This document shows, piece by piece, positions 752-61,666 of a DNA stretch of 64,000 nucleotides. The notes under the pieces are model-generated. The model was not told the DNA's origin. It saw only the letters and a program-made list of their open reading frames with translations, and ran no database searches. The stretch is from a virus. The DNA lies in IMG/VR virus record IMGVR_UViG_3300027631_000002, positions 1 to 64,000 of that record; one strand, written 5' to 3'. The stretch's first letter is position 1; every line of letters begins with the position of its first letter. A program made the translations under genes and the position numbers.

Positions 752-1114
752 TTATTCTTCTTCGTTTTTTAAAATTTCGTTAAGTTTCTTGTCTCTTATA
801 TATTCTAAGGTTGCTTCTTTAAATCTTGTTTCTGTGTATTCATATGGCTCCGCATGTGAAACTGAGTCCCAATCTGGAGAATCCCAAGAAGAGTATGAAC
901 CTTCTAAAAGAACATACATATTACACTCAATAAAGTGTAGTGCAATTGTCCATTCGTTTCCATCACCATAGTGTTGATCGTAAATAGTTGGTACTTCCTT
1001 ATGTAATTCCTTAATCCATTTACCTTCTACTTCCCCGTTATAAATTTCATAGAAAAAGTTTGTATCATTAGCTTTAACCTTTTCAATAATTTGTTCTCTT
1101 GTAAAAATTCCCAT
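752..1114 (-). CDS. hypothetical protein with C-terminal RDxKL motif
   Basis: 120-aa ORF ending YIRDKKLNEILKNEEE. Confidence 0.75.
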   Translation of the reverse strand: MGIFTREQIIEKVKANDTNFFYEIYNGEVEGKWIKELHKEVPTIYDQHYGDGNEWTIALHFIECNMYVLLEGSYSSWDSPDWDSVSHAEPYEYTETRFKEATLEYIRDKKLNEILKNEEE

Positions 1115-1118
1115 TGTT

Positions 1119-1832
1119 TTAATCTTTTATTGTTTTATATTGTTCGTAAAATTTTGAGTTTGTTGCATTCCAGTAATAATTATCCCAATTTTCGATAATA
1201 AAGTCTGATAACCAAACTGGATGTAATCTTGTTACTAGATTTTGTTGTGCCATATTATAAGCTGCCTTTGCTGGTAAATGTCCTAATCTTTCCATTGCAA
1301 TTACAAATGCTTCTTCATAAAGAACTTCTTTTCTTTCATCTTCTGTTAAATCATAGAACTTTTCTGGACTTGGATTTAGATCATTGACAATCATTTTCAG
1401 ATAAGTTGGTACAGGATTTAACATCTTATGTAAATCATCGTGATTTACTTTTCTCTTAACTCTATCATCAAAGAACTTACCTGGTTTAACTTCAAAGTCT
1501 GTTCTATGTTGTTCTCCGTGTACACTTACCCAATGTTCTCTTAATTGTGTAAGAAAAGATGGTATTACTTTACAACCTTTCATTTGTAGAAATCTAATGT
1601 CAGACATAGTTTTCTTCCAATTGATGTCATAAATTGCGTGACTTACTTTCAAAGTGTAAATCTCGTCGGCAGTCATTTCTCTATCAGGTGTATTTGGGAT
1701 AAAATAGTATTCCTCTTTTCCAACAATAGATTTTTTTAATTTAGTTATATCATTGGTAACCCAATCAATATCTTTAGGTTCTCTAAAGTCACTAAATAAT
1801 TTTTTGATAAGGTGTGATCCAAATAAATACAT
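1119..1832 (-). CDS. phage nucleotidyltransferase-fold-like hypothetical protein
   Basis: N-terminal FGS...DID pattern and LKVSH motif of a family I recall from large phages. Confidence 0.5.
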   Translation of the reverse strand: MYLFGSHLIKKLFSDFREPKDIDWVTNDITKLKKSIVGKEEYYFIPNTPDREMTADEIYTLKVSHAIYDINWKKTMSDIRFLQMKGCKVIPSFLTQLREHWVSVHGEQHRTDFEVKPGKFFDDRVKRKVNHDDLHKMLNPVPTYLKMIVNDLNPSPEKFYDLTEDERKEVLYEEAFVIAMERLGHLPAKAAYNMAQQNLVTRLHPVWLSDFIIENWDNYYWNATNSKFYEQYKTIKD

Positions 1833-2201
1833 TTATATTATGTTTGTTGTTATTCCAGACGTTGGAATATATTTTGTTTTAATTTGCTCTAAAGCCATAA
1901 AGTAAAGTTCTTCATAAACTTCTCTTACATTTTTACCACGATTTATCTCTTTGATAAAGGATAAAAATTCTGTATAAGGTAGTAAAAGTTTTCTACTACG
2001 GTGTGTGTCAAAATCATCTAAGATAGTAATAATCATTTCATACTTCATCTTCATATCAGCAGTTTCTAATAGGTATGAGATTCTTTCGTCAGAAGAGTTC
2101 TCTAAAGCTAGTTTAGTATCTTCAAACGTTTCACCTCTTACCCAATCTCTGTGAAGATTGATAATTTGATCTAATTCTTTCTGTCTATTTGTATCTAACA
2201 T
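1833..2201 (-). CDS. hypothetical protein
   Basis: 122-aa ORF abutting its neighbours. Confidence 0.65.
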   Translation of the reverse strand: MLDTNRQKELDQIINLHRDWVRGETFEDTKLALENSSDERISYLLETADMKMKYEMIITILDDFDTHRSRKLLLPYTEFLSFIKEINRGKNVREVYEELYFMALEQIKTKYIPTSGITTNII

Positions 2202-2485
2202 TATATTTTGCCTAAGATTGTTTGTTTCATTTCTCTAACTTCATCTTTGGTAAAACCATTGATTGTTAGACTGTCATTACCAGTAGTTTCAATTGTAATT
2301 GTTGAAAATCCAATTAGTGGACTATCAATATTTACTGATGCAATTTTAGAAAAAGGAATTGTTTTTTCTTTATTGTTGAATAATCCGGGTTCGATAATTG
2401 TAACAGAGCTATCAGTGATTGTAATTTTGTGTGGAAATACCTTACTTACTCCTGCCGCTAGTTTAGACGCTTGATATACTTTCAT
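2201..2485 (-). CDS. bacterial PH-domain protein
   Basis: GLFNNKEKTIPFSKIASVNI...FSTITIETTG pattern. Confidence 0.7.
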   Translation of the reverse strand: MKVYQASKLAAGVSKVFPHKITITDSSVTIIEPGLFNNKEKTIPFSKIASVNIDSPLIGFSTITIETTGNDSLTINGFTKDEVREMKQTILGKI

Positions 2486-2516
2486 ATTTAGTTATTTTAT
2501 TTCTACAAAGATACGA

Positions 2517-3974
2517 TTATTTTTCTAATTTCAAAATTTCTGAACTATTTTTTCTAATCTCTTTACATAATTCTTTATTATTATTTAAAGATTGTCCATA
2601 AGAAGGAATCATTTCTTTTAATTTTTCTGTCCAATCTTCATTCTTAAAACATTTCTCAATTAGATCTAACATAATAGATGTTGCTGTTGATGCACCGGGA
2701 GAGGCACCCAATAAACCAGCAATTGTTCCATCAGCAGAGGTAATAACTTCTGTACCAAACTCTAATATACCTTTTCCTTCACCATCTTTTTTAATAACCT
2801 GAACTCTTTGACCCGCGGTTTCTAAAATCCAATCTTTTGATTTAGCAGTTGGAACATATTCTCTTAAAACCATCATTCTATCTGCTCTAGATTGACGAAC
2901 TTGGTCAATTAGATACTTTGTTAGTGGAATGTTTTTTAAGCCAGCACCCATCATTGGGATGATGTTATTCAATCTAATTGATGTAAATAGATCCCAATAA
3001 GAACCATTTTTAAGAAATTTTGTTGAAAATCCAGCATAAGGTCCAAATAGTAACTCTTTTTTACCATTTATCATACGACTGTCTATGTGAGGAACAGACA
3101 TCGGTGGTGCACCAACTCCGGCTTTACCATATACTTTAGCATTGTGTTTTTCGATAACTTCTAAATTAGTACAACGTAACCATTGACCACTAACTGGAAA
3201 TCCACCATAACCTTCGATTTCTGGAATACCAGATTTTTCTAATAAATGAAGTGAACCACCACCTGCACCAATAAATACAAAGTCTGATTCTATTTTTCTT
3301 TTTTCATTGGTAGATAAGTCTTTAACTTTAATTACCCATTTACCTTCTTTATTTTTTAATTTTTTTACTTCGTGATTAAAATGTAGTTCTACACCATCTT
3401 GTGATTTAAGATAATCAAACATACTTCTGGTTAGATTACCAAAATTCACGTCAGTACCAATTTCATTTTTAGTCGCTGCAACTTTTTGATTTTCTTTACG
3501 ACCTTCCATAACAAGTGGTGCCCAAGATTTGATTGTATCAAAATCTTCTGTGTATTCCATATCTTGAAATAAAGTATTTGGTTTTAAAGTGCTATATCTT
3601 GTTTTTAGGAAGTTTACATTTTCTTGACCCCATACAAAACTCATATGTGGACTTTGTTTAATAAAAAATTCTGGTTTAACAATTAGGTTATTCTTAACTA
3701 AATAAGACCAAAATTGTTTAGATACTTCATACTGTTCGGCGATTTGAATTGCTTTATCTGGATTTATTGAACCATCTGGATTTTGTGGTGTATAGTTTAA
3801 TTCACAGAACGCTGAGTGACCAGTACCTGCATTATTCCAAGCATCGGAACTTTCTGCGGCTGCAGAGTCTAATCTTTCAAAGATTTGTATATTTAATTCA
3901 GGATCTAATTGTTTAAGGATTGTTCCTAATGTGGCACTCATAATTCCAGCACCGATAAGTGTTATATTTTTCAT
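2517..3974 (-). CDS. mqo: malate:quinone oxidoreductase
   Basis: LIGAGIMSATL FAD motif, ESSDAWNNAGTGHSAFCELNYTP, GAPPMSVPHID, AGQRVQVIK and LLGASPGAST. Confidence 0.97.
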   Translation of the reverse strand: MKNITLIGAGIMSATLGTILKQLDPELNIQIFERLDSAAAESSDAWNNAGTGHSAFCELNYTPQNPDGSINPDKAIQIAEQYEVSKQFWSYLVKNNLIVKPEFFIKQSPHMSFVWGQENVNFLKTRYSTLKPNTLFQDMEYTEDFDTIKSWAPLVMEGRKENQKVAATKNEIGTDVNFGNLTRSMFDYLKSQDGVELHFNHEVKKLKNKEGKWVIKVKDLSTNEKRKIESDFVFIGAGGGSLHLLEKSGIPEIEGYGGFPVSGQWLRCTNLEVIEKHNAKVYGKAGVGAPPMSVPHIDSRMINGKKELLFGPYAGFSTKFLKNGSYWDLFTSIRLNNIIPMMGAGLKNIPLTKYLIDQVRQSRADRMMVLREYVPTAKSKDWILETAGQRVQVIKKDGEGKGILEFGTEVITSADGTIAGLLGASPGASTATSIMLDLIEKCFKNEDWTEKLKEMIPSYGQSLNNNKELCKEIRKNSSEILKLEK

Positions 3975-4050: not shown

Positions 4051-4320
4051 ATGAGTAAATTATTTAAAAAGTTAAGAAAATTCTTTTTTGGAGAAACATA
4101 TCAGGAGGTTCTAGATCGAAAATATGGTGGTTCAATTCCTACTAATATGTTTGTAAATGATAGAGAGTTAAGTAAGGCTGGAGAAAAAAGAACTTATAAG
4201 ATTACGATTACTAATACTCCTACTAGTACAGGAGCATCTCTATATAATGCTTTTTATCCACACTCTTTAAACAAACATATTTTTAGAAAAAGAAAAATTT
4301 CTAAATTATTTTCAATTTAA
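4051..4320 (+). CDS. hypothetical protein with C-terminal RxxKI motif variant
   Basis: Ends IFRKRKISKLFSI. Confidence 0.6.
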   Translation: MSKLFKKLRKFFFGETYQEVLDRKYGGSIPTNMFVNDRELSKAGEKRTYKITITNTPTSTGASLYNAFYPHSLNKHIFRKRKISKLFSI

Positions 4321-4349: not shown

Positions 4350-4838
4350 ATGACACAAAAACAAATTTTCTTAAAAAATATAGTAGATTCAACTATGAGT
4401 ATTAGCTTAGATCAATCCGTTAGTGTTGAAACACTTGATGCATTTCATTTTAATAATAAAGCAATAAATGAGAAGTCTATTAAGTTTGAGTATATATTGA
4501 GAAATTCGGAGACAAAGTATTTTTTTAGTATTACTTTTTATAAGACAAGTAAAAAAGGTTTTTTCGGATCAGATAAAAGTCAATTTTATTTAAGAATCGA
4601 CACAAGAATGACTACACAGTATTCATCCTCTAGTGTAGGTACAGACTTCATTACTAATGAAACAGGTGATATTGAACTATTAAAAAGAATGTTTAATTTT
4701 TTAAATGATCGAATTGAAGAGAAGCGAATTAAGAAAGAAGAAGATTCATACTTATTAAGAAATAAAGAATTAGTTAAATTTATAGATAAAAGTTTAACTC
4801 GTGATGAGAAGCTAAAAGATTTACTACAAGATAAATAA
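4350..4838 (+). CDS. hypothetical protein with C-terminal RDxKL motif
   Basis: Ends LTRDEKLKDLLQDK. Confidence 0.75.
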   Translation: MTQKQIFLKNIVDSTMSISLDQSVSVETLDAFHFNNKAINEKSIKFEYILRNSETKYFFSITFYKTSKKGFFGSDKSQFYLRIDTRMTTQYSSSSVGTDFITNETGDIELLKRMFNFLNDRIEEKRIKKEEDSYLLRNKELVKFIDKSLTRDEKLKDLLQDK

Positions 4839-7273: not shown

Positions 7274-7555
7274 TTATTTAATATTTTCTAGTTTCTCGTC
7301 TCTGTAATATGGAATTAAATCAACATTGAAGTTACCACTATAATCATAATCACCTGCACCATATTTATATTCTACACTAATTGTATTTTCATCAATGATT
7401 ACACACTTATCATAGTGATGCCAACCTTGGTCAAATTTTTTAGGATCTCTAGGAAAATTCTCATTATATCTTGCTTTTGCAAAATCATCGAGTTTTTTTC
7501 TATCTTCTTTAACACTAATTAAATTTTTTACTGATTTTTGTAATTCTGAACTCAT
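7274..7555 (-). CDS. hypothetical protein with C-terminal RDxKL motif
   Basis: Ends YYRDEKLENIK. Confidence 0.7.
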   Translation of the reverse strand: MSSELQKSVKNLISVKEDRKKLDDFAKARYNENFPRDPKKFDQGWHHYDKCVIIDENTISVEYKYGAGDYDYSGNFNVDLIPYYRDEKLENIK

Positions 7556-7761
7556 TATTCGTCTTTATATTTGGTTGTTAAGTGATAGTAATCACATTGT
7601 TCACATCTATATGCTACTAATATTGTATCTTTTTTAGGATATTTTTTATTTAAGTATTCTGAATTTACTTGTGCCAGTGTAAGAGTTTCCCATCTTACTT
7701 TGGAAGTTCTATTTGCAGACATACAAACAACTTCACCGTTATCGTTTATTAAGTAATTCAT
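7555..7761 (-). CDS. small protein with possible Zn-ribbon
   Basis: AYRCEQCDYYHLTT. Confidence 0.6.
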   Translation of the reverse strand: MNYLINDNGEVVCMSANRTSKVRWETLTLAQVNSEYLNKKYPKKDTILVAYRCEQCDYYHLTTKYKDE

Positions 7762-8044
7762 TTATCTTTTCATTTCTTCGTTCATCTAAATGAATTTTAT
7801 CTCTCATCAACATTTCAACTGTTAAAGAAATAATACCTCTGTAGTATTCAATTCCTACGTCAGTATCATTTTTAAGTTCTTCTACTATCTGATCTGAGGT
7901 TAAACCTTGTCTACCAGTAATAAATATTCTATCTCCCACTTTTTCATAAGTAGAGATAAGTAAGTCTTTTAATTTTTGTTCTAATGTTATTTCTTCCATA
8001 TGTATTCTTGATTTCCTTGTAAAGACCAATTCATTTTTATCCAT
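7739..8044 (-). CDS. hypothetical protein with C-terminal RNEKI motif
   Basis: Ends RRNEKINELLNKR. Start MDKNE lies just after a TATCTTTG promoter box. Confidence 0.7.
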   Translation of the reverse strand: MDKNELVFTRKSRIHMEEITLEQKLKDLLISTYEKVGDRIFITGRQGLTSDQIVEELKNDTDVGIEYYRGIISLTVEMLMRDKIHLDERRNEKINELLNKR

Positions 8045-8104
8045 GTAGCAAAGATAATAAAAAAATCCCAAAAGAACTAACTTTTGGGATTTTTCTTTCT
8101 AAAT

Positions 8105-8306: not shown

Positions 8307-8942
8307 TTATTTTGTTGTTAAAATCAATCTATCTATTCCAAGTGCGAAACCTATCCCAACATCATAGGAACCACCACCACAGATTTGTTTTTGTGCTCCT
8401 AACTCTGGACAAGCAATTTCAAATCCTTTACCACCAGTGTAGTAGTCAAGTCCTCTTGTTGCGTCTAAGTTTACTTCGTAGTTATCAGTTGCTAACTCAA
8501 TTAGTTTAGTTGCAATCTCTAACATTTCATCAGTCATATCTTCAGTTGGATTGATTACTTCAACACCAAATTGCGTGAATTCACGGTAACGCCCAGCTTG
8601 TGGTTTTTCTCCACGAAAACATTGTCCAATGTAAAATAACTTAACGTTCTTTGTCATTTTAAATGTTTCGTTAGCGAGCTGTTGTACGACTGCGGTATAT
8701 TCTGGTGCCAAACAGATGTCTCTGTTACCTCTATCGGTAAAAGTGTACATCATGTTGTTATTTTCTTCACCTACTTTACTAGCAAATGTTTCAGTTAGTT
8801 GAATAACTGGGATCATCATTTCTTGATAACCATAGGATTCCATAATATCAATCATTTGATTTAGTAATCTTCTTTTGTTTCTAGCTGTTTCACCAAAAAC
8901 TATCCTCGTACCTTTGTACGTTTTACTTGTCTTTATCTCCAT
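8307..8942 (-). CDS. hisS: minimal histidyl-tRNA synthetase-like protein (catalytic core only, 211 aa)
   Basis: KGTR, LAPEYT, FRGEKPQAGRYREFTQFGVE, RGLDYYTG, GGGSY and IGFALGIDRL. Ends right after motif 3. The track start at 8981 lies inside the terminator, so 8942 is used. Confidence 0.85.
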   Translation of the reverse strand: MEIKTSKTYKGTRIVFGETARNKRRLLNQMIDIMESYGYQEMMIPVIQLTETFASKVGEENNNMMYTFTDRGNRDICLAPEYTAVVQQLANETFKMTKNVKLFYIGQCFRGEKPQAGRYREFTQFGVEVINPTEDMTDEMLEIATKLIELATDNYEVNLDATRGLDYYTGGKGFEIACPELGAQKQICGGGSYDVGIGFALGIDRLILTTK

Positions 8943-8964
8943 TTTAATAATATATTTTTTTAAT

Positions 8965-8995
8965 AAAAAAGCCCAGATCATTATAATCTGGGCTT
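8965..8995 (-). terminator. attenuator terminator upstream of mini-hisS
   Basis: mRNA AAGCCCAGAT-TATAATG-ATCTGGGCTTTTTT. Confidence 0.85.
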
Positions 8996-16362: not shown

Positions 16363-17640
16363 TTATCTTAATATTGTTTGTTTTCTGTCAGGTCCAACAG
16401 AAACTATCTTAATTGGTGTTTCTAATTCTTTTTCTATAAACTCAATATATTCCTTTAGTTCTTCGGGTAAATTATTAAAGTCTTTAATATTAGTTATATC
16501 TTCTGACCAGCCATCAAATCCTATATAAATAGGTTCTAAGTTTTCTGGCTCAATGTTATAAGGAAAGTGTGTAATTATCTCACCTTTATATTTATAACCA
16601 GTACAAATCATTATTTTATCAAATCCAGACAGTACATCACCTTTCATCATCATAAGTTCTGTTACACCATTTATTTGACAAGAATATTTAAGAGCAACTA
16701 AATCTAACCAACCACATCTTCTAGCTCTACCAGTAACAGAACCAAATTCGTTACCAATTTTTGCCATTTGTTCACCTACCTCATCAAATAATTCTGTAGG
16801 AAATGGTCCACTTCCTACTCTTGTTGTATAAGCTTTGAAAATACCATAAACATCTTTGATTTTATTAGGTGCAATACCCAATCCTGTACAAGCACCAGCT
16901 GCAGTTGTATTAGAAGAAGTAACAAATGGATAAGTTCCAAAATCAACATCTAATAATGAACCTTGTGCACCTTCACATAAAATAGATTTACCTTCTTTTT
17001 GAGCTTGATGTAAATACTCTTCACTATCAATAAAAGTAAATTGTCTTAGATAAGCAAGTGCATCCAAGAATTCTTCTTCCATATCTTCATAATTGGTGTT
17101 AAATTGTTTGATAACACTCCAATCTATTAGTTCATCATGTTTCTTTTCTAACTTAGTAAATCTTTTGTGAAAGTCTGGTAATTCTAAGTCACCAACTCTG
17201 ATTCCGTTTCTACCAGTTTTATCCATATAAGTAGGTCCAATTCCTTTAAGAGTAGAACCAATTTTATCTTTACCTTTTGCAGTTTCTGAGGTAGCATCTA
17301 AAAGTTTATGAGTAGGTAGAATTAAGTGAGCTTTTCTTGATATAAGTAATCTTTTTTTAACATCCATATCAAATTTTGCTAGAGCTTCTACTTCTTGTCT
17401 GAATACAACAGGATCAAGTACAACACCATTACCAATTATATTTATTGTGTCTTTATGAAAGATACCAGAAGGTATAGTTCTAAGTACGTGTTTTCTTCCT
17501 TCAAATAGAATTGTATGTCCAGAATTTGGACCACCTTGAAATCTTGCTATTATATCATATTTTGAAGTCATTACATCAATTATCTTGCCTTTTCCACAAT
17601 CTCCCCAACTTAATCCAACTAAAACGTCTACTTTACTCAT
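16363..17640 (-). CDS. purA: adenylosuccinate synthetase
   Basis: GLSWGDCGKGK, RFQGGPNSGHT, EGAQGSLLDVDFGTYPFVTSS, TTRVGSGPFPTE and VTGRARRCGWLD. Confidence 0.97.
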   Translation of the reverse strand: MSKVDVLVGLSWGDCGKGKIIDVMTSKYDIIARFQGGPNSGHTILFEGRKHVLRTIPSGIFHKDTINIIGNGVVLDPVVFRQEVEALAKFDMDVKKRLLISRKAHLILPTHKLLDATSETAKGKDKIGSTLKGIGPTYMDKTGRNGIRVGDLELPDFHKRFTKLEKKHDELIDWSVIKQFNTNYEDMEEEFLDALAYLRQFTFIDSEEYLHQAQKEGKSILCEGAQGSLLDVDFGTYPFVTSSNTTAAGACTGLGIAPNKIKDVYGIFKAYTTRVGSGPFPTELFDEVGEQMAKIGNEFGSVTGRARRCGWLDLVALKYSCQINGVTELMMMKGDVLSGFDKIMICTGYKYKGEIITHFPYNIEPENLEPIYIGFDGWSEDITNIKDFNNLPEELKEYIEFIEKELETPIKIVSVGPDRKQTILR

Positions 17641-38338: not shown

Positions 38339-38406
38339 AAGTTGAAATTATATACAAAGATATAGAAATTATATTATATTTAATAAAATTGTTTTATATT
38401 TGTAGT

Positions 38407-45772: not shown

Positions 45773-45830
45773 AATGTATATATTATTTTTTTTTATGTGA
45801 AAAGTCAATTATTTTTTTAATATATAGTTT

Positions 45831-49311: not shown

Positions 49312-49785
49312 TTAGTCTAAGTGTCTAATATCTTTATGTGAAGATTTTTCGTTACCGTTGTGAGACCACAATCTTGCAAATGGTGTAGTAAAGTAATCAT
49401 TATAACATAAAGTATCATCAATATGAAGGTCTATATTATTTTCTTTACAATATTCTGCTTTTGTTGAATCCCATAAAACATCATCGAATTTTTTCTGAAT
49501 AGTTCCATCCGGAAATTCAATCTCACCTAAGATTTCTGCGGTTTTTAATAGGTGATCATAAACTGAGAATTTATGAGTATAGTTTATACCGTGTAGTTGT
49601 TTTTCTAATTTATCTGTCCATTCCCCTCCAGTGATTACATGCACTTCACCACCATTTTTTATAACAGAGTCTGCTAAAAATACAAAGAATTCTGGAATTG
49701 CATCGATTACTCCGTGTATATCGATACCAATTTTGAATTTTGCTGTTGAACTTTCGTTCACTATACTACTAAATTTTGTTATCAT
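49312..49785 (-). CDS. HAD-like phosphatase/nucleotidase
   Basis: IGIDIHGVID, VITGG and LHIDD. Confidence 0.65.
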   Translation of the reverse strand: MITKFSSIVNESSTAKFKIGIDIHGVIDAIPEFFVFLADSVIKNGGEVHVITGGEWTDKLEKQLHGINYTHKFSVYDHLLKTAEILGEIEFPDGTIQKKFDDVLWDSTKAEYCKENNIDLHIDDTLCYNDYFTTPFARLWSHNGNEKSSHKDIRHLD

Positions 49786-49795: not shown

Positions 49796-50188
49796 TTAAA
49801 TTATTTCTTCAATTTTCTTATCTCTCATTTCTGCAGTAGATAAAATTTCTTTTACAAAGATATGAAAATTACTCGTAAAAGTAATCAAGTTGAATGAAAT
49901 ATTTGTACTCATTCCGGCACCACTTGATTGACTATCTAAAGTTGGATTTGTCTTTGTAATACTTCCCCAATAGTTAAATCCAAATGATGGTTCATAAATA
50001 GCACTATTACTACTTCTTTCATTCCAAAATTCTATTACAAATGTTTTGCTTTCTGTTTCGTTACTGTCATATTCATATAAAATTGTAAATTGATCATTGT
50101 CATAAAATATATTTAAAATCTTACTGTAAGCAGGTAAATGAAAGCTTGCTTGATTATAACTGGTGTGTGTTGATTGTGTTGTTATCAT
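49796..50188 (-). CDS. hypothetical protein with C-terminal RDKKI motif
   Basis: Ends EMRDKKIEEII. Confidence 0.7.
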   Translation of the reverse strand: MITTQSTHTSYNQASFHLPAYSKILNIFYDNDQFTILYEYDSNETESKTFVIEFWNERSSNSAIYEPSFGFNYWGSITKTNPTLDSQSSGAGMSTNISFNLITFTSNFHIFVKEILSTAEMRDKKIEEII

Positions 50189-50550
50189 ATTCCTAATTTA
50201 CTTAAAATTTTATCTCTATAGAAACTTATATCATCAACAATAAAAAGGTTTGAATCTGTAATAATTAGATCATCAATAATCTCAATAATCTTTGATGTTT
50301 TTTGTAGTGACATAATTCCTACATTTTGATTACTTGTAACTATTTGATCTATTTCTAATAAATCTACATTAGCTGGTTCTTGATTTACAATACCTTTACA
50401 TCTTTGTATAGAATACTTATCTATAAATTCTTTATTATTTAATATTTTTTTATAGAATTTATTTTCAGTATCTACCATAACATAGGAAACCTCGGTAGAT
50501 TTCCCACCGAGGTGATTATGAATTAAATCTCCTACCTTAATTAGTTTCAT
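50185..50550 (-). CDS. hypothetical protein with C-terminal RD motif
   Basis: Ends FYRDKILSKLGI. Confidence 0.65.
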   Translation of the reverse strand: MKLIKVGDLIHNHLGGKSTEVSYVMVDTENKFYKKILNNKEFIDKYSIQRCKGIVNQEPANVDLLEIDQIVTSNQNVGIMSLQKTSKIIEIIDDLIITDSNLFIVDDISFYRDKILSKLGI

Positions 50551-51400: not shown

Positions 51401-51643
51401 TTATTTTTGATTTATTAGAGAAATTTTTTGAATTCTTGTTAGTTGTTTAATTCTCCACTCTTCTTTTGCTGCCAAAGATTTTGTTTCAAATTCACACTGA
51501 TACATCAGTTTTACTGGTGTTCTTGTCTTGGTGTATTTAGCACCTTTCTTCTTATTATGTGTATCAATTCTCTTTTCTACGTTATTGGTTATACCGGTAT
51601 ATAACGTCAAATCACTACACTCTAAAATATAAACATACCACAT
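51401..51643 (-). CDS. GIY-YIG nuclease (UPF0213/YhbQ-like)
   Basis: WYVYILEC...YTGITNN..KR...HN...GAKYT. Confidence 0.9.
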   Translation of the reverse strand: MWYVYILECSDLTLYTGITNNVEKRIDTHNKKKGAKYTKTRTPVKLMYQCEFETKSLAAKEEWRIKQLTRIQKISLINQK

Positions 51644-51730: not shown

Positions 51731-52168
51731 ATGAAATACATAAAATTATTTGAGAATGCTATACCTCTACGACAGCCTTCTTATAAGAAAGGTGAGATAA
51801 TAATTTGGTCGGATCAGATTAAAAATAAAGATGTTGATTATGATTTTGCTAAGAAATTGCTTGATCGAGTAGGTCTTAAATTAGTAGGAGAACCTTATGA
51901 TGGTGGATTTTTAGTAGAATGTGAACCAGGTAAAGAAGTAGAAAGTGCAGAAATGGCAATTTCTAGGTTTCCTGAATTTTTTGATAGTTACCAAAGAGAA
52001 GATATAAGAATGCCATTTATTTGGGATAAAATGGAAGAAATAACCGATAAAGTTGCGGGTATAGAAGATTTCTTTGAAAGAATTGATAAGAAATTTGTAA
52101 ATATTAAAAAGTATAATGATTATCTTGATGATATAATAAGTGAACTTGATAATTTAAAAATAAAATAA
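51731..52168 (+). CDS. hypothetical protein with capsid-targeting-like N-terminus
   Basis: MKYIKLFEN, preceded by TAATATATA at 51717. Confidence 0.7.
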   Translation: MKYIKLFENAIPLRQPSYKKGEIIIWSDQIKNKDVDYDFAKKLLDRVGLKLVGEPYDGGFLVECEPGKEVESAEMAISRFPEFFDSYQREDIRMPFIWDKMEEITDKVAGIEDFFERIDKKFVNIKKYNDYLDDIISELDNLKIK

Positions 52169-53889: not shown

Positions 53890-54255
53890 ATGGAAATTAT
53901 ACAGCGACATGGCATTGCCTTTAAAGTAATAGAAAGAAAGATGAATTTCCCTTTCATAACTGATTGTGATGATATGTTATGTGAAGATATAAGTTCATTT
54001 TATTCAGACCCAAACACACAATCTATTGTTCTAATTAGAGATAACTATTCTAAACCTATTATGACTTATCAAGATGTTCTTGATGAGATAGAGTATCTAT
54101 ATGATAATAGTATTCGTTGGAGAAGTGAAGAAAGAAGAGATAGTTTAAGAACTTACTATCATAAAGTCTCTAATATAATGAAAACTTACAAAAGACAAGA
54201 ACAAATAAATAAGGTATTAAATAGTAACGAATGTACATTTCACCTAGCATGTTAA
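53890..54255 (+). CDS. hypothetical protein with RQEQI motif variant near C-terminus
   Basis: YKRQEQINKVL. TATCTTTG promoter box immediately upstream. Confidence 0.65.
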   Translation: MEIIQRHGIAFKVIERKMNFPFITDCDDMLCEDISSFYSDPNTQSIVLIRDNYSKPIMTYQDVLDEIEYLYDNSIRWRSEERRDSLRTYYHKVSNIMKTYKRQEQINKVLNSNECTFHLAC

Positions 54256-54767
54256 AAAACAAATTATACTTATTCGATAAGTGGTTATACAAAGATAGAA
54301 ACTCATTACTTGTTTTACTATTAGTTGTTGGTTCTACATTTATGATTAGTTATGAACCTACTATTTTTTATGGTATTGGATTATTATCTATCATATGTTT
54401 TTATGTTGTCTTTATAAAAGCAAAAATTTTAGGTCAAGATTGGAAACTAGATAAGTCAGTATATGATGTACCACAAGAACAAGAAATTATAGTAACGACA
54501 AAAGATTTTTATTGGGATGGTTATGTCAAATCAAATCACATACATAGTCATACTAGTAAACCTAATACACTTTTTGTAAAGAAAGGAACAGAATTTAAGA
54601 TTATTGATTTAAAAGAAGAGAAAGAAGATTGGAGACTAATGCTAAAAAAAGGTAATGGTGAAATGATTATTACGGTAGGTTACTTTGAATCAAGAAAGTA
54701 TTATAAAACAAAGTCTCAAATTAGAGAAGAAAAATTAAAGAAATTATTAAGTAAAAAAATATGGTAA
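54249..54767 (+). CDS. membrane protein with C-terminal REEKL motif
   Basis: Two N-terminal hydrophobic segments. Ends QIREEKLKKLLSKKIW. Confidence 0.65.
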   Translation: MLKNKLYLFDKWLYKDRNSLLVLLLVVGSTFMISYEPTIFYGIGLLSIICFYVVFIKAKILGQDWKLDKSVYDVPQEQEIIVTTKDFYWDGYVKSNHIHSHTSKPNTLFVKKGTEFKIIDLKEEKEDWRLMLKKGNGEMIITVGYFESRKYYKTKSQIREEKLKKLLSKKIW

Positions 54768-55471
54768 AATTACTACCCGCAACATTCAAATGGGTTCCCA
54801 AATTAGATGATGTTATCAAGATTTCCGGTCTACATCCAAGTCGAGTATTTAACGTAACTATTTTTGGTTCACGTGTTTATGGTAATTATGATTCAGCATC
54901 TGACTGGGATATTATTATAGTTGCAAATAATTCAGTAGAAGCAATTGAGTTAAAAGAAACTGTGCAAGACGAGTATTCTTATAATATGAATCATAGATTT
55001 ATTACATATAACATTCACATTTATACACCAGATAGATTTCAAAAGGATTTAGATTGGCATCGTATGAATAATCTTGAATGTATCTTTGCACCAGACTGGG
55101 CTAAGTTAAAAGAAGATAAAAAATATGAGTTTAACTTAGACTTAAAAAAATTAAGACATGCTTCATCACATATTAGTTCTAATTCTTGGATAAAATGTAA
55201 GAAAAAACTATTGATTGATGATCAGTATCGTACTGCTATAAAATCATTCTATCATTCTATAAGAATACCTATGTTTGCAACACAAATTGCTAGAAGTGGT
55301 AGAATAACTGACTTTACAACTGCTAACTTTATTTGGAGAAGACTTATGTTTGATGAAGTTCCTAGTTATCAAAAGAAAGATAGTAAATGGGATTGGGATT
55401 CTTTAAATTTAGAGTTTAAAATTACATATAATCTAATGTTAAGTTTATTTAGAAAAGTAACTGATAAATAA
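54761..55471 (+). CDS. nucleotidyltransferase (Pol-beta superfamily)
   Basis: IFGSRVYG...SDWDIIIV. Confidence 0.8.
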   Translation: MVKLLPATFKWVPKLDDVIKISGLHPSRVFNVTIFGSRVYGNYDSASDWDIIIVANNSVEAIELKETVQDEYSYNMNHRFITYNIHIYTPDRFQKDLDWHRMNNLECIFAPDWAKLKEDKKYEFNLDLKKLRHASSHISSNSWIKCKKKLLIDDQYRTAIKSFYHSIRIPMFATQIARSGRITDFTTANFIWRRLMFDEVPSYQKKDSKWDWDSLNLEFKITYNLMLSLFRKVTDK

Positions 55472-55707
55472 TGGAAGAAGAATTAGAAAAATTATATCAA
55501 GATTTACTTACAAATAGACAAACCTATAGAGGTCAAGGTTTATTACAAGTTAGTCCGCCACAACCACATCAGAATTTAATTGATAATCCAACGGTTATAA
55601 ATTATGATTTTGCTTCTTTGTATCCAAGTGTTCAGAAAAAGTATTATTATAAAATAAGTATGAAAGTTTCTATTAGAAAAAGAAAGATTAGAAATATATT
55701 ACAATAA
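55471..55707 (+). CDS. short ORF carrying family-B DNA polymerase motif A and a C-terminal RxRKI motif
   Basis: VINYDFASLYPSV, ends SIRKRKIRNILQ. Confidence 0.55.
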   Translation: MEEELEKLYQDLLTNRQTYRGQGLLQVSPPQPHQNLIDNPTVINYDFASLYPSVQKKYYYKISMKVSIRKRKIRNILQ

Positions 55708-55737: not shown

Positions 55738-57291
55738 TTAATTACATTCTGGACATCCAACTTCACCTCGTCCATTACATATATCACAAGATTCTTCACC
55801 TCGTCCATCACAGTTATAACATTCTCCTCTTTTCTCACCTTCACAGGTTTCACATTCATTTTTACCTGTTCCCGAACAAGTAGCACATTCTACTTCACCA
55901 GATAATAATTCTATTGTTCCGGTTCCAGAACATTCATTACAATCTACTTCACCATGTCCTTCACATTCAGAACAATCTGATTCACCAGTACCATGACAAA
56001 CACGACAATTTGTAGTACGTTCTCCTTCACATTCAGGACAATCAACTATTCCACTACCTTCACATATATCACAACCTTGTCCATTAGAACCATTAGTTTG
56101 AGTTAGTGTATAATATGTTGTGTGATTCGACCAGGGGAACTCTCTATTAGAGATTATACCAAGATCTGGGCTATAATACTTCATAGTATCCATATAAGGA
56201 TAATAGTCATAATATTCTCTTCTAAGTTTGACTGTTACTACACTTTCTTTACCATATACTTCATTTCCGTTAAAAACTAAACTAGAATCTTCTTCATAGC
56301 TTTGTTCTGATTTGTGATAATAATCATGTTTATAACAATACTCTTTGAATAGAAGTATATCAGAATTTCTAATAGTGTATATTCTGTCCATAAATCTTCT
56401 TCCTTCTTCATCTAACCAAAGAATAGCTCTACCAGAAATTTTAGTAGAATCTTCTTCACTTATTAAAATAATCATTGATACTTTATCAGAATTTTCAGTA
56501 TAAATATCAAAATATTTTTGACATTCTGAATGTCTCATACAAGATCCACCTAATGGTCCTCCAATTTTTTCATAATTATCTTCTAAATACCACTTTTTTA
56601 TTTCATCACCTTTAACTTCTTTAAATCTTTTAAAAACATTCTTTTGTAATTCTAATACTTTTTTATATTTATCAACAAAGTCTTCAATCTCTTTATCTTT
56701 ATATTCTAATCCTAAATTTTTTAGAAAGGCTCTAACAAATCTTCCAACATTTACCTCAGTAGGGGTAATTTTAGAAACATCTTTCACAAGATAATTGTCT
56801 AAGACTATTGCTTCATAGGTTTTACCTCTTTCTTCAAATTGAAAAACAAATAATTGTTGGTTATTATCGTACATATAAGACCAAACACCTGGATTATTTG
56901 GTGAAATTTTTAGAACTTCTTCTAAAGTAAACTTTTTTATAACCGTCCCGGTTTGACCATCAGATGGCTCTTTCCAACCGTGTATAATACCCATATTATC
57001 TGCTACCTTAGATAGATTATCATAAACACCTCCATTACTACGTAATGTGTATATAGCTTTATCAATTTTATCTTGAGGTTTAAAAAATATACTATCAGTT
57101 TTATCTCTATTTATATCAATATAGTTTCTGGTAACATCCATATCTCTACCCTTATATGATAAAATTTGAGCGGCTATATTAGAATCTATCTTATCTAATA
57201 CATCTAAAAATTGTTGTGTATAAACTATTTTAGCTTCTAAAAGAAGTTCTAGTTTACTTTCTGTAATAAAATCTAAGTAATTTGAAATCAT
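55738..57291 (-). CDS. SCM/DRIY-family phage protein with 10 CxxC C-terminal array
   Basis: LGGSCMRH, GRAILW, FMDRIY and YPYMDTMKY. N-terminus MISNYLDFITES. Confidence 0.8.
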   Translation of the reverse strand: MISNYLDFITESKLELLLEAKIVYTQQFLDVLDKIDSNIAAQILSYKGRDMDVTRNYIDINRDKTDSIFFKPQDKIDKAIYTLRSNGGVYDNLSKVADNMGIIHGWKEPSDGQTGTVIKKFTLEEVLKISPNNPGVWSYMYDNNQQLFVFQFEERGKTYEAIVLDNYLVKDVSKITPTEVNVGRFVRAFLKNLGLEYKDKEIEDFVDKYKKVLELQKNVFKRFKEVKGDEIKKWYLEDNYEKIGGPLGGSCMRHSECQKYFDIYTENSDKVSMIILISEEDSTKISGRAILWLDEEGRRFMDRIYTIRNSDILLFKEYCYKHDYYHKSEQSYEEDSSLVFNGNEVYGKESVVTVKLRREYYDYYPYMDTMKYYSPDLGIISNREFPWSNHTTYYTLTQTNGSNGQGCDICEGSGIVDCPECEGERTTNCRVCHGTGESDCSECEGHGEVDCNECSGTGTIELLSGEVECATCSGTGKNECETCEGEKRGECYNCDGRGEESCDICNGRGEVGCPECN

Positions 57292-57359: not shown

Positions 57360-58787
57360 TTAGTAATCACCTTCACAGTCTGGACAAGTAATCTGATCAT
57401 CACCATCACATTGTGAACAAGTTTTCTTACCTTCACCACCACATGTTTCACATTCCATATCATCTATTTCACCATCTCCATTACATTCAGTACAAACTTC
57501 TTCACCATCTCCATTACAAGTTGGACAAGTAATAGTACCATCTTGTTCACAAGTTGCACAAAGTTTATCATAATAACCTTCAGTTGATTCACAATAATAA
57601 ACTACTCCACTTTCTGAATTTTCATTTGATATAATTCCAGTTTCAGGACTATAGTATTTTAAAGTATCCATATAAGGAAAATTTTCATGTCTTTTATGTA
57701 ATTGAACTTGTGCAGTAAAATAGTTTTCCTGTTGACCTTCTGGTCCAATAGCATTTATAGTTGAAGAACTATTATTATTTGATTTATACCACCAACCACT
57801 ATCTTGTGCAAATTGTTTGAACAGTTCAACATCAGAATCAGAATTAGTATAAACCCTATCCATTAATTTTTTACCATTTAAACATTCCCAAAGAATTGCA
57901 CGTCCAATAATTTTACTATCATCATCTTGTGATTTATAAATAATTAAAGATACAGTGTTGTTTTCAGTATATGGATCTAACCAACTAGATTCAGCTTCTG
58001 CCATACAAGAATTTGCTAATGTACCACTTGGATCATAGTAATTATCATACTGATATTTATAATAAATATCATCACCTTGAACAACATCAAAGAATGAGAA
58101 TTTATCATTGAATTTATCCATCTGAGCTTTATATAAATTCACAAAGATTTCAATATCTCTTGCTGTAAATTTGGCAGTATCATCTTCTCTAGCAGCTAAA
58201 GTTAAAAGAGCATTCATTGATCTACCAACTCTAACATCTTGACGATTTTTTGACCAAACCAATTTGTTTCTATCATCAACTGGTCTCAATTTCTCTAAAT
58301 TAAAAACACCTTGACCATTTGCAAATTTTAACCAAATCCAAGTTTTACCAGATTTTTCAGAAACTATCTTTTCAACAACTTCACCAACTTCTGCTGATGT
58401 AGGTTTATAAACATCTCCTTCTGGTACATATCCTAATCTACCAAAAATTCCATTATTTGCTTCACCGTGAGTTAGCCATCCACCATTATTTCCTACAAAA
58501 CGATATAATTCTTTTGGATCATTTAAAATCTCTTGAGCTTTTCTATCTGCAGTAAAGTACAAATAATCATTTCTTACTGGATCTATATCAAAGTAGTTAG
58601 CAACTACTGGTAAGTCTTTCTTTTCTAATCCTAGAATCTTTTTAGCAACAGGACTATCAATTTTACCTAATACTTTCTTAAAATTATCTGAAAACATTAC
58701 ATCCGACTCTAATAAAAGTTCAATCAATTGAGATTCTGTTATTAAATCATGTGATTCTGTTATAAAATCAATATATTTTTTTAACAT
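57360..58787 (-). CDS. SCM/DRVY-family phage protein with 6 CxxC C-terminal array
   Basis: LANSCMAE, GRAILW, LMDRVY and FPYMDTLKY. N-terminus MLKKYIDFITES. Confidence 0.8.
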   Translation of the reverse strand: MLKKYIDFITESHDLITESQLIELLLESDVMFSDNFKKVLGKIDSPVAKKILGLEKKDLPVVANYFDIDPVRNDYLYFTADRKAQEILNDPKELYRFVGNNGGWLTHGEANNGIFGRLGYVPEGDVYKPTSAEVGEVVEKIVSEKSGKTWIWLKFANGQGVFNLEKLRPVDDRNKLVWSKNRQDVRVGRSMNALLTLAAREDDTAKFTARDIEIFVNLYKAQMDKFNDKFSFFDVVQGDDIYYKYQYDNYYDPSGTLANSCMAEAESSWLDPYTENNTVSLIIYKSQDDDSKIIGRAILWECLNGKKLMDRVYTNSDSDVELFKQFAQDSGWWYKSNNNSSSTINAIGPEGQQENYFTAQVQLHKRHENFPYMDTLKYYSPETGIISNENSESGVVYYCESTEGYYDKLCATCEQDGTITCPTCNGDGEEVCTECNGDGEIDDMECETCGGEGKKTCSQCDGDDQITCPDCEGDY

Positions 58788-58847
58788 TATTATAATATAA
58801 TTTTTTATTATATATTATTATTTCATTCTCATAAATTATACTTATAT

Positions 58848-59222
58848 TTGTTCAAATTATATAAAATGAGTACATTCGGTAAGAAAGCGTTAGTTTTTTG
58901 GAATTACGATTCTAATGAAACAAATCGTTTTAGTAAAACACCAATAGAAATACAACTAAAGATACTAGAGAAATGGTATCCAATTGGATATATGTGTAAA
59001 TTTTTTCCACCGACTTATCCTTCTGATCGAGTCTATCAAATAAAAGACTACTTATTACATGTAGGTGGTTTTTATACAGTACTTATAGAGCAAAAGATTA
59101 CAGAAGGATATTCATCGATGATAGTAAAGAATGGATATAATCCTTTAAGATTAGATATGATAGATAAACAGATACTATTAAGAGATTATAAATTAGAGAG
59201 AATATTAAAAAACCCATCTTAA
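58848..59222 (+). CDS. hypothetical protein with C-terminal RDYKL motif
   Basis: Ends LLRDYKLERILKNPS. Confidence 0.7.
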   Translation: MFKLYKMSTFGKKALVFWNYDSNETNRFSKTPIEIQLKILEKWYPIGYMCKFFPPTYPSDRVYQIKDYLLHVGGFYTVLIEQKITEGYSSMIVKNGYNPLRLDMIDKQILLRDYKLERILKNPS

Positions 59223-59240
59223 TTAAGATGGGTTTCTTTG

Positions 59241-59981
59241 TTATGCTTTTCTTAAAACTTCTTTAGTATAGTAATCTTCAAAACCATCTAGGTAAGTAGT
59301 AATCGGTGTTGATTTATCAGTGATAATGATTTCATCAATAAATCCAAAGTCTAAAGCTTCTTGTGAGTTTAACCAATTATCTCTTCTAGCACTTTCAAGT
59401 ACATAATCAAAATCTCTACCACTATTCTCTGCAAGCATCTTGAATAATATATAGTTGTATTTTTCTGATTCCATTTGAGAAATACGATTATCTTCAACGT
59501 GTCCTGATGCACCAGAAGAAACTTGATGTATCATTACTTTAGAGAAGTTTAATGATGCTCTTTTACCTTTAGTTCCTGATGATAATAAGATAGAACCCAT
59601 TGATGCTGCCATACCTGTATTGATAGTTTCAACATCCGAATTGATATATCTCATAACATCAACCATACCTAATCCAGCTAAAACTGAACCACCTGGTGAG
59701 TCAATGTGCATCTTAATATCTTTTTTCTCAACAGAGTCTAAATACATCAATTGAGCTTGAACAACGGTTGACATTTGTGTGTTTACAACACCAGCAACCC
59801 ATAATATACGATCACGCATGAGTCTACTAAAAATGTCCATCTGCGTTACTCTCATTTCTCTTTCTTCAAGAATATATGGTGTCATACTATTCTCTACTAA
59901 ACCTTTTTCAAAGTAGTCTAAGTTTAAAGAAGAAATTCCTTCACTTAAAGCATACTTTTTAAAATCTTTTCCAAAATCCAT
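59241..59981 (-). CDS. clpP: ATP-dependent Clp protease proteolytic subunit
   Basis: DIFSRLMRDRI, IDSPGGSV, GMAASMGS (catalytic Ser), VMIHQ and RDNWL. Confidence 0.96.
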   Translation of the reverse strand: MDFGKDFKKYALSEGISSLNLDYFEKGLVENSMTPYILEEREMRVTQMDIFSRLMRDRILWVAGVVNTQMSTVVQAQLMYLDSVEKKDIKMHIDSPGGSVLAGLGMVDVMRYINSDVETINTGMAASMGSILLSSGTKGKRASLNFSKVMIHQVSSGASGHVEDNRISQMESEKYNYILFKMLAENSGRDFDYVLESARRDNWLNSQEALDFGFIDEIIITDKSTPITTYLDGFEDYYTKEVLRKA

Positions 59982-60099
59982 TTTTTATAATTTAAAGTTA
60001 TTAAACTGATATGTCAAAAAGTGATAAAAGTTTATCAATAATAATTTTTTAGTTTCACTTATTTATACATATCTTTGTCTTTTAAACTAAAAAATATAT

Positions 60100-60717
60100 A
60101 TGAAAAACGCTTTTAAGTTATTTGACTTTATGGGAACTCCAGTTTATTTGAAATACTGGTTCTTTATCTTACTTCCTTTATTTATGTTACAATCTGGTGG
60201 ATTTACAGAACAAGGATTTCTAACTGGGTTAGATTGGTTCTTATCAATCTTTGCCGCAGTCTTATTACATGAATTGGCACATACTGCAGTTGCTAAAAAA
60301 TTGAATCATCCAGTAGATCATGTTTATTTAGATGTGTTTAATGGTGCGGCCGCAATTGATACAACCTACTCTTCTTATAAAGATACTATTCTTATTGTAT
60401 TGGCCGGCCCACTCTCAAATTTAGTATTATGGATTATTGGTTCTTATTTAGGACTGGATATATTTGTACAAGTGAATATGTTTTTATTCATATTTAATAT
60501 TTTACCTATTTATCCAATGGATGGTGGTCGAATTTGTAAAGCAATTTGTCAATGGATGACTAAACCTTCGCTCGGAAGAAAAATAAATGGATATATCTCG
60601 ATCATTTTTAGTTCATTACTATTTATTGCATCGATTATGACTACTAATGTTATTATGGCTATATTTGCAGTCTTTTTTATCTTTCTTTCATATAAGGAAA
60701 TAGAACAAAAATATTAA
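60100..60717 (+). CDS. M50-family (site-2) intramembrane metalloprotease
   Basis: LHELAH, LAGPLSN and NILPIYPMDGG. Confidence 0.92.
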   Translation: MKNAFKLFDFMGTPVYLKYWFFILLPLFMLQSGGFTEQGFLTGLDWFLSIFAAVLLHELAHTAVAKKLNHPVDHVYLDVFNGAAAIDTTYSSYKDTILIVLAGPLSNLVLWIIGSYLGLDIFVQVNMFLFIFNILPIYPMDGGRICKAICQWMTKPSLGRKINGYISIIFSSLLFIASIMTTNVIMAIFAVFFIFLSYKEIEQKY

Positions 60718-60719
60718 AA

Positions 60720-61238
60720 ATGTTAGACATTGGTAAAACAAATCTTTTCCTAAATGACAAAGCTAAATATGTTGTTAGTAAACTAATAGACGATTATGAT
60801 CTTATGGGTCAAAATTGTTTGTTTTTAACTCATAAGAATGACACGTTACAACTTAAATGTGCTTCTTGTACTTATACTACTTATGATTCAATACCAGATA
60901 TTTTATCTGAGAATTTATTTAGAGTAAATATTATTATTGTCGAGTCAAATAGAAAATTTAATTTTTTACTTGATTCTATAAGAGAAGTAACAGATTTACC
61001 AGTTATTGTAGTTACTGATGATTTATCATATGATTATCCAGATTATAGATTTGATTATATTTATAAACTTTATAGACAAGAAAGAGATATAAATTTCCCA
61101 TTAAATATAGATAGATTTGAAGAAGAATTTTTAAATAGTTCACATATAACAGATGTTAAAAATAATTGGAGCACATCTTTGGCAGATTTAAGAACACAAT
61201 ACATTAGAGATAAAAAAATTAACGATTTATTAAAATAA
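60720..61238 (+). CDS. hypothetical protein with C-terminal RDKKI motif
   Basis: Ends YIRDKKINDLLK. Confidence 0.72.
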   Translation: MLDIGKTNLFLNDKAKYVVSKLIDDYDLMGQNCLFLTHKNDTLQLKCASCTYTTYDSIPDILSENLFRVNIIIVESNRKFNFLLDSIREVTDLPVIVVTDDLSYDYPDYRFDYIYKLYRQERDINFPLNIDRFEEEFLNSSHITDVKNNWSTSLADLRTQYIRDKKINDLLK

Positions 61239-61240
61239 AA

Positions 61241-61666
61241 ATGAAAGCACACGTAATTGTAAAAAAAGGTTATGAGTATGATGATAGCATCTATACTGAG
61301 TCAGAGGGTGGAAATCCTGAATTGATTTGTTTCTCAAAAGAGGATGCGGATAATAAAGTAAATGAATTAAATAAACAGGAGTTTAAAACAACTTCACTTA
61401 GTTATTATTCATATGAATTAGAAGACATATTAAATGTTGATATTGAAGAATATGAAAAGTTCAATCAATCCTTGGTTGAAAAGTATGGTAAGATAGCGAA
61501 AAAAGATTCTTGGAATGATGTTGAAAATACTTTACATCCAATGGCAAATGATGAAGAGATTGAGAAATATATAAAGATGGTTAGTATAAGTTTTTATGAA
61601 GTAAAACCGACAGACATTGATGTTCAAAGTTTTAGAGATTATAAAATTGATGAAGTATTAAAATAA
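61241..61666 (+). CDS. hypothetical protein with C-terminal RDYKI motif
   Basis: Ends SFRDYKIDEVLK. Confidence 0.72.
   Translation: MKAHVIVKKGYEYDDSIYTESEGGNPELICFSKEDADNKVNELNKQEFKTTSLSYYSYELEDILNVDIEEYEKFNQSLVEKYGKIAKKDSWNDVENTLHPMANDEEIEKYIKMVSISFYEVKPTDIDVQSFRDYKIDEVLK

Follow-up and report, generated by a model that had tools for sequence, protein, structure and literature searches.

Tagged open reading frames in the window

The window analysed here comprises the first 64 kb (positions 1 to 64,000) of a viral contig of 179,626 bp and 28.9% GC (IMG/VR record IMGVR_UViG_3300027631_000002), which is a fragment of a Lak/Mahaphage-type megaphage, and the element under study is a short C-terminal peptide motif, here called the R-tail, carried by many small predicted proteins. 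The only nucleotide relatives of the contig among deposited phages were uncultured genomes of 635-735 kb (LR745206, LR756502 and LR756501/3/4). Window genes include those for a ClpC-like AAA+ ATPase, ClpP, an M50 peptidase, NusA, truncated aminoacyl-tRNA synthetase cores, Mqo, adenylosuccinate synthetase and a C5 methylase. The 13 core open reading frames (ORFs) that a preliminary description of the sequence had claimed to share the tail all carry it where it was reported, with the pattern R-[DNE]-x-K-[IL]-x-x-[ILV]-[LIF] at the C-terminus. ORFs were called mechanically, with some start codons possibly wrong and C-termini unaffected; two starts are shifted relative to the earlier calls (54231 instead of 54249, and 38389 instead of 38407). 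Six relatives were fetched, whole or in large part, and are referred to as G001, W01 (LR745206), G004, G005, W03 (LR756501) and G010; G000 and the fetched part of W01 are incomplete sequences.

The strict pattern R[DNE].K[ILV]..[ILV][ILV] gave 12 matches across the full 179.6-kb contig, and 11 of these sit 9-17 amino acids (aa) before a stop codon (binomial p 9.4e-12), with none in the first 20 aa of any ORF. Shuffling the last 20 residues of each ORF yielded a mean of 0.07 strict matches and a maximum of 1 (200 trials), and the proposition that the motif is no commoner at C-termini than elsewhere does not hold against these two results. Independent scoring was performed with a 12-column matrix trained only on two other genomes, at a threshold of 7.2 bits (99.99th percentile of internal windows); this called 19 of the 222 contig ORFs tagged against 0.3 expected. 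A scan of IMG/VR for the exact DNA pattern returned 12 matches, every one on a megaphage-like contig. Querying the ESM Atlas with the tail gave no usable match, and in the literature we found no description of the R-tail, of Lak or megaphage C-terminal motifs or, in phages, of the second motif (DPYGEE-x-W) described below.

Tagged ORFs are given here with strand, length, tail, motif position and matrix score. ORF 752-1114 (-, 120 aa) ends in YIRDKKLNEILKNEEE (motif 770-796; 25.9 bits). In its family, orthologues with as little as 50% identity still have R107, D108 and K110 unchanged, the residues past the motif differ in number and kind, and AlphaFold2 predicted a helix at 103-119 after a low-confidence linker, for which a mean predicted local distance difference test score (pLDDT) of 69.7 is weak support; a Foldseek search of the model against the PDB gave no match. 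ORF 4350-4838 (+, 162 aa) ends in TRDEKLKDLLQDK (4800-4826; 20.4 bits), and its orthologue in loci L009/L010 retains VRDEKLNDLLSDK. Two further ORFs lie on the minus strand nearby, 7274-7555 (93 aa; tail YYRDEKLENIK, 7277-7303; 13.7 bits) and 7739-8071 (110 aa; RRNEKINELLNKR, 7751-7777; 23.2 bits). ORF 39832-40017 (+, 61 aa; YVRDQKIDLILKK, 39982-40008; 21.4 bits) is followed by a terminator-like hairpin, and beyond it come 41002-41340 (-, 112 aa; NRRDLKIDLLT, 41005-41031; 9.1 bits), 41376-41759 (-, 127 aa; YFRNEKLNSIGV, 41382-41408; 15.9 bits), 42298-42573 (-, 91 aa; VKREEKLENILKEE, 42310-42336; 20.4 bits) and 49796-50188 (-, 130 aa; EMRDKKIEEII, 49799-49825; 22.1 bits). The remaining core ORFs are on the plus strand: 54231-54767 (178 aa; QIREEKLKKLLSKKIW, 54723-54749; 22.6 bits), in whose relatives the post-motif extension differs (...KLLK or ...KLLSKKIW); 58848-59222 (124 aa; LLRDYKLERILKNPS, 59181-59207; 21.8 bits), which adjoins ClpP; 60720-61238 (172 aa; YIRDKKINDLLK, 61206-61232; 25.7 bits); and 61241-61666 (141 aa; SFRDYKIDEVLK, 61634-61660; 21.9 bits).

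Seven looser variants had also been proposed, and these fared unevenly. Three pass the matrix and were accepted, namely 4051-4320 (+, 89 aa; IFRKRKISKLFSI, 4285-4311; 10.4 bits, above 99.99% of internal windows), 55471-55707 (+, 78 aa; SIRKRKIRNILQ, 55675-55701; 11.9 bits) and 38389-38841 (+, 150 aa; IKRDFVIRDLLK, 38809-38835; 7.4 bits). Three are borderline: 38841-39044 (+, 67 aa; LKRKEKIKRICQN, 39009-39035; 3.2 bits, the 99.98th percentile of internal windows), 50185-50550 (-, 121 aa; FYRDKILSKLGI, 50191-50217; 3.8 bits) and 53890-54255 (+, 121 aa; YKRQEQINKVL, 20 aa before the end, 54193-54219; 4.0 bits). The seventh, 18457-18726 (-), is unsupported, its best tail (YRRQHMLHQLV) scoring -7.4 bits. 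ORF 51401-51643 (-, 80 aa; LTRIQKISLINQK, 51410-51436; 0.1 bits) is a further borderline tail absent from the earlier list, and its orthologues in L002-L006 read TRNQKILLINQN.

Motif composition and selection on the peptide

The anatomy of the motif was taken from 90 tails of two genomes. The tails conform to the consensus hydrophobic-R-[D>E,N]-x-[K>Q,N,R]-[I/L]-[N,K,D,E]-x-[I/L/V]-[L>I,F], after which there are generally 0-2 polar residues before the stop codon; in 65 of the 90 tails the first motif residue is 9-11 residues from the terminus, leaving 0-2 residues after the motif, with extensions reaching up to 11 residues and an overall motif-to-stop distance of 9 to 20 residues. When one position was varied at a time, position 0 at C-termini was Arg in 69 cases and Lys in 0, position 3 accepted Q, N, R and T, and position 4 was I or L only. 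By helical-wheel reasoning, R0, K3, I4, I7 and L8 would lie on one face.

Within the window the motif is written with varied codons (Arg as AGA/CGT/AGG/CGA, Leu as TTA/CTA/CTT/TTG, Ile as ATT/ATA, and Lys as AAA/AAG), and the DNA after the stop varies from gene to gene, being the next start codon for some and a hairpin for others. Between close orthologues (85-90% identity; loci L001-L007 and L046), differences numbered 21 synonymous versus 5 non-synonymous at the six conserved positions of the motif, against 117 versus 171 in the 30 upstream codons (odds ratio 6.1, p 1e-4). Since most codon changes within the motif are silent, it is the peptide that is under selection and not a DNA repeat, as the synonymous codon variety had been taken to indicate from the start.

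A DNA repeat, promoter or terminator cassette was ruled out by this codon variation together with the heterogeneous downstream DNA, and stop-codon recoding that would make the motif internal was likewise ruled out, the window tags all ending in TAA. In G001 and W01, TGA closes tagged ORFs at two to three times the frequency seen in untagged small ORFs, an excess due to ATGA stop/start overlaps; read-through of these TGA codons runs a median of 4 codons to the next stop, with no open read-through. It follows from the overlaps that tagged genes sit preferentially in translationally coupled arrays.

Proteins that carry the tail

The proteins bearing the tail had been called unrelated, and this stands: with tails masked, 90 tagged proteins from two genomes gave 85 BLAST singletons, and in all-against-all BLAST of the tagged proteins only the tails align. 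A hidden paralogue family was ruled out on the same singleton count and on the lack of a common Pfam or PHROG family. Among 80 tagged proteins, Pfam and PHROGs identified only a GIY-YIG nuclease, a MazG-like pyrophosphatase, a segment like the L12 C-terminal domain, DUF6501 and two unnamed PHROGs. Median length was 104 aa, and by a pattern tolerant at position 3 no tagged ORF exceeded 250 aa, in agreement with the reported absence of the tail from large enzymes; the sole large ORF with a tail, a 936-aa ORF of G001 that belongs to no recognised family, has a weaker one that is counted by the stricter pattern and by the matrix. Isoelectric point and hydrophobic-segment content did not differ between tagged and other small ORFs.

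In G001 (97% complete), 41 of 74 tagged genes fall within the last 88 kb, in dense same-strand arrays of small genes, often with ATGA overlaps. Homologues in G004 were found for 11% of tagged genes versus 27% of untagged small ORFs, indicating faster turnover, and where a homologue exists the tail is usually retained (10 of 13 and 10 of 12 pairs). Fragments of core proteins were not significantly enriched among R-tagged proteins (2 of 94, versus 1.2% of untagged). A class of proteins with the N-terminus MKY[IL]K[IL]FE, which resembles the T4 capsid-targeting sequence (CTS), occurs in all lineages (window 45831-47555 and 51731-52168; G000 91717, 115065, 120209 and 166613); this possible capsid-targeting N-terminus and the R-tail co-occurred in 0 proteins.

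Distribution among megaphages and a second motif

The matrix was applied to the six relatives, with 0.3-1.6 tagged ORFs expected per genome. Above threshold were 124 of 768 ORFs in G001 (508 kb, 97% complete), 93 of 599 in W01 (400 kb of 635 kb fetched), 93 of 642 in G004 (476 kb) and 42 of 459 in G005 (385 kb, 95% complete), compared with 0 of 1019 in W03 (735 kb) and 0 of 326 in G010 (270 kb, 100% complete). The R-tail is therefore found on 9-16% of ORFs in four relatives and is absent from W03 and G010; it is a conserved trait of one clade, not of AT-rich phages generally. ClpC proteins within the tagged clade are only ~48-50% identical. The homologue of ORF 752 in untagged G010 ends ...EYVKVNEITFE, without R-D-x-K.

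W03 carries a different motif, [L/I/F]-DPYGEE-x-W-[D/E/N], on ~91 proteins (L058-L094, whole 735-kb LR756501.1); 39 copies are C-terminal, and the others are internal or 10-20 residues from the N-terminus. None was found in the R-tail genomes. In W03 its carriers include free-standing fragments of the portal, capsid, sheath and protease proteins, and it occurs on 9 of the 15 W03 proteins of the MKY[IL]K[IL]FE class. A three-copy protein built from head-protease repeats is 65 aa long in G001 (271117-271314), where it ends in the R-tail, and 207 aa long in W03, where it ends in DPYGEE-D-W; because proteins made of the same repeat bear one tag or the other in two lineages, the comparison suggests that the R-tail and DPYGEE-x-W may be interchangeable modules. 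A 736-aa head maturation protease with a run of 13-residue repeats, YSEYxAExLDKxI, lies at L095:4430-6637 (G000 132430-134640).

ClpC, ClpP and the search for a partner

Two Clp genes were considered. A ClpC-like AAA+ unfoldase of 686 aa (30208-32268, +), which lacks Clp_N but has a UVR/M-domain and a VGF loop, is a candidate reader of the tag, and the ClpP protease of 246 aa (59241-59981, -) is a candidate partner of that ATPase. ClpC-like proteins fell into two architectures, with loci at window 30208-32268, L035:2219-4345, L108:8444-10546 and L075:12514-14745. Co-occurrence of ClpC/ClpP with the tag was rejected, as it fails in both directions (Clp without tags in G010, tags without ClpP in G005). 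Pooled motif discovery around 80 ClpC loci was confounded by orthologues and was not used. A transfer-messenger RNA (tmRNA) was found in G001 at L051:1501-1894 (G001 59955-60348, -; 83.6 bits; predicted tag AKSKTTATQVEELEIA), and the same model gave only sub-threshold tRNA-like matches in G000.

A presence/absence screen for genes in G001, G004 and G005 and absent from W03 and G010 left 47 candidates, none of which resembled a peptide-binding module. The most conserved candidate with a copy in the window (49312-49785, -, 157 aa) has 455 metagenome homologues and adjoins tagged genes; its identity across tagged genomes is 55-69% (G001 lowest), higher than that of ClpC, and neither of the two untagged megaphages has it. 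The protein is a HAD-like hydrolase whose motif I reads D-x-H in place of D-x-D, and not a peptide-binding module. Sliding-clamp profiles (PF02767, DnaN-like, and PF09116, gp45-like) found nothing in four genomes, where a divergent clamp or that of the host might still act; with no clamp gene detected by these profiles and no polymerase tagged, clamp binding is disfavoured. An alignment of capsid proteins from four tagged and two untagged genomes showed no N-terminal feature tracking the tag.

Other genes in the window

Two auxiliary metabolic genes are full-length, encoding malate:quinone oxidoreductase and adenylosuccinate synthetase (2517-3974 and 16363-17640, -). Many aminoacyl-tRNA synthetase genes are cut to the catalytic core (window 8307-8981, 35498-36757 and 40044-40898, and several in G001); the core types are histidyl (HisRS), class I, Asp/Lys/Asn type, Phe, Ala and Ser/Thr type, several of them confined to the tagged clade. 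Three paralogues of ~480-517 aa with C-terminal CxxCxGxG zinc-finger repeats of the DnaJ/BSD2 type lie at 44375-45808, 55738-57291 and 57360-58787, all on the minus strand, and have homologues in tagged and untagged megaphages.

Interpretation and alternative explanations

We consider a docking or address tag to be the best reading of the tail, at a probability of about 0.5, on the grounds of terminal enrichment, purifying selection, Arg-not-Lys specificity, the unrelated bodies of the carriers and conservation across five genomes; tags swapped between lineages point the same way. Under this proposal the tail would form a short C-terminal amphipathic helix whose R0/K3/I4/I7/L8 face may fit a groove, containing an acidic pocket, of a single conserved partner protein, so serving as a portable address on otherwise unrelated proteins, and would gather many small, fast-evolving accessory proteins, mostly from tight same-strand arrays, to be handled as one class. 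We infer that one partner binds the tail and, with this, the subsequent fate of the tagged proteins. The tag is specific to one Lak/Mahaphage-type clade, and its reader is therefore probably phage-encoded or co-evolved with the clade. Of the possible destinations, the two that can be put most concretely are the phage ClpC-like unfoldase, for removal or unfolding at a set time, and the prohead interior, for packaging and co-injection, each of which we would regard as improbable when taken singly.

Several observations weigh against a docking tag. No partner was found for the tail, and the best-conserved candidates of the screen are enzymes (a HAD-like hydrolase, an M28 peptidase and an NAD (nicotinamide adenine dinucleotide)-dependent DNA ligase), with a pyridoxal phosphate (PLP)-dependent enzyme also among the 47; as no hub was identified, that there is one hub is something that we infer. 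A self-association helix would yield identical sequence statistics. Internal windows above threshold are 5-6x commoner in tagged than in untagged genomes, so that the motif has a strong preference for the C-terminus without being bound to it. The tagged genomes all come from one clade, which makes each co-occurrence a single evolutionary contrast.

The preliminary description had named ClpC/ClpP as an example of a hub that the tail might address; the portable tail on diverse small proteins, the selection on the peptide and, probably, a common partner survive from that interpretation, and the ClpC/ClpP hub is not supported, given G010, G005 and the tmRNA tag. As a degron or adaptor-docking peptide, the tail would direct early accessory proteins to the phage ClpC-like unfoldase, with phage or host ClpP, for scheduled clearance. 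All five tagged genomes do encode a ClpC-like ATPase without Clp_N and with the UVR/M-domain and a VGF ClpP-docking loop, whereas in untagged W03 the ClpC has Clp_N and neither M-domain nor VGF and the genome has no ClpP, and ClpP in the window adjoins three tagged genes. We nevertheless think this unlikely: the complete genome of G010 has ClpP and an N-less, UVR-positive ClpC with an IGF loop and yet 0 of 326 tagged ORFs, G005 has 42 tagged ORFs and no ClpP match even at E < 10, and eight ClpC-like loci with GC of at least 37% had 0 tags among 179 unique flanking ORFs; moreover, the tmRNA tag of tagged G001 is unlike the R-tail, and the distance from motif to C-terminus varies, from 0-2 residues after the motif in 65 of 90 tails to as many as 11 in others. 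Equally unlikely, in our estimate, is a cargo-loading signal by which small effectors would dock on the inside of the prohead, on the scaffold or on the protease, and would then be packaged and co-injected with the DNA. The tail has its basic residues at i and i+3 of a C-terminal helix, arranged as R293 and K296 are in P22 scaffolding protein (PMC9965877), head-protease repeats make up one tagged micro-protein, the alternative motif of W03 is found on portal, capsid, sheath and protease fragments and on the 9 of 15 proteins with a T4-CTS-like N-terminus, and the tagged clients are numerous, small and fast-evolving, as injected counter-defence proteins might be expected to be. Set against this, no protein of the MKY[IL]K[IL]FE class carries the tail, the capsid-protein N-terminus shows no change tracking the tag in the six genomes aligned, and tagged genes lie in small-gene arrays far from head genes.

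Less probable again than either destination is a dimer or tetramer helix with no common receptor, by which small binding domains would become multivalent through self-association. The amphipathic i/i+3/i+4 hydrophobic stripe would suit such a helix, the adjacent Arg and Asp could form inter-helix salt bridges, and no partner was found; but a near-identical interface on ~100 co-expressed proteins would give promiscuous hetero-oligomers, the absolute Arg-not-Lys and I/L-only rules are stricter than is usual in short coiled coils, and the extreme C-terminal preference is left unexplained. That the tail is terminal, short, amphipathic and supplied with basic residues recalls membrane-targeting helices of the MinD/FtsA type. 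MinD-type membrane helices, however, tolerate Arg/Lys swaps, and the R-tail has Arg and never Lys (69 versus 0), only I/L at position 4, a conserved acidic residue after the Arg and, by helical-wheel reasoning, the Arg in the middle of the hydrophobic face, so that we hold membrane targeting to be very improbable. We give almost no credence to a signal at the level of DNA, RNA or the nascent chain (a promoter, terminator cassette, recoded stop or ribosome-arrest peptide): the roughly fixed position relative to the stop and the TGA excess in tagged ORFs of G001 and W01 could be read in this way, yet codons vary synonymously, the DNA that follows differs from gene to gene, most of the TGA stops are ATGA overlaps with a median read-through of 4 codons, and the motif lies anywhere from 9 to 20 residues before the stop.

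Returning to the docking tag, small proteins without assigned function make up much the larger part of megaphage genomes, and the value of the tag is that a shared tail places ~100 of these proteins per genome in one functional class, and that a 12-residue peptide with clear negative-control mutations is a handle for fishing out the machine that reads it. A reader, if it exists, would reveal the organisation, timing or delivery of the accessory proteins in a virus of 0.5 Mb, and would make the peptide a portable tag for engineering. The different motif on the same kind of proteins in a sister lineage suggests an overlooked general principle of large phages. Speculatively, and with more doubt than confidence, one might propose that megaphages use proteome-scale, lineage-specific peptide address codes, the R-tail in one clade and DPYGEE-x-W in another, each directing at least a tenth of the phage's proteins, for the most part small effectors that evolve fast, to a phage machine of its own (ClpC-driven timed clearance or an effector-injecting cargo loader); if true, this would be a sorting system without a described counterpart in phages.

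Comparison with known systems

The T4 capsid-targeting sequence and encapsulin cargo peptides are short terminal peptides that route unrelated cargo into an HK97-fold shell, and the R-tail resembles such capsid- or scaffold-docking peptides in being a terminal peptide common to unrelated proteins. The T4 CTS, however, is N-terminal and cleaved, and encapsulin peptides are Gly/Ser/Leu-rich, whereas the R-tail is C-terminal and reads R-D-x-K-I. The ssrA tag, the MuA C-terminus and the XB tail of SspB are C-terminal peptides that mark proteins for the AAA+ ATPases ClpX, ClpA or ClpC. The R-tail is likewise a C-terminal peptide on diverse proteins, and a ClpC-like ATPase and ClpP are encoded in the window; it differs from these tags in being helical (as predicted), in its variable distance to the carboxylate, in its dissimilarity to the phage tmRNA tag and in not being tied to the presence of ClpP or ClpC.

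Closest in principle are the sliding-clamp-binding tails of T4 gp43, gp33 and gp55, which are interchangeable C-terminal peptides on unrelated proteins that address one hub (PMC2988020, PMC7892883); the R-tail too is a short C-terminal peptide on unrelated proteins, and its hydrophobics at i, i+3 and i+4 after a polar residue can be compared with the clamp-binding PIP-box, Q-x-x-[ILM]-x-x-[FY]-[FY]. The T4 tails are hydrophobic and acidic and sit on a few proteins of replication and transcription, the polymerase among them, whereas the R-tail is basic with an invariant Arg and is carried by 9-16% of ORFs, nearly all small, with no polymerase among them and no clamp gene detected. Closest in chemistry is the C-terminal helix-loop-helix of P22 scaffolding protein, in which R293 and K296, a basic pair three residues apart on a C-terminal helix, bind acidic residues of the coat N-arm and are essential for docking (PMC9965877). 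In P22 this is a feature of one protein, whereas the R-tail is on ~100 proteins and no covariation with the capsid protein was seen. By its defining features the R-tail belongs to neither the T4 clamp-tail nor the P22 scaffolding family.

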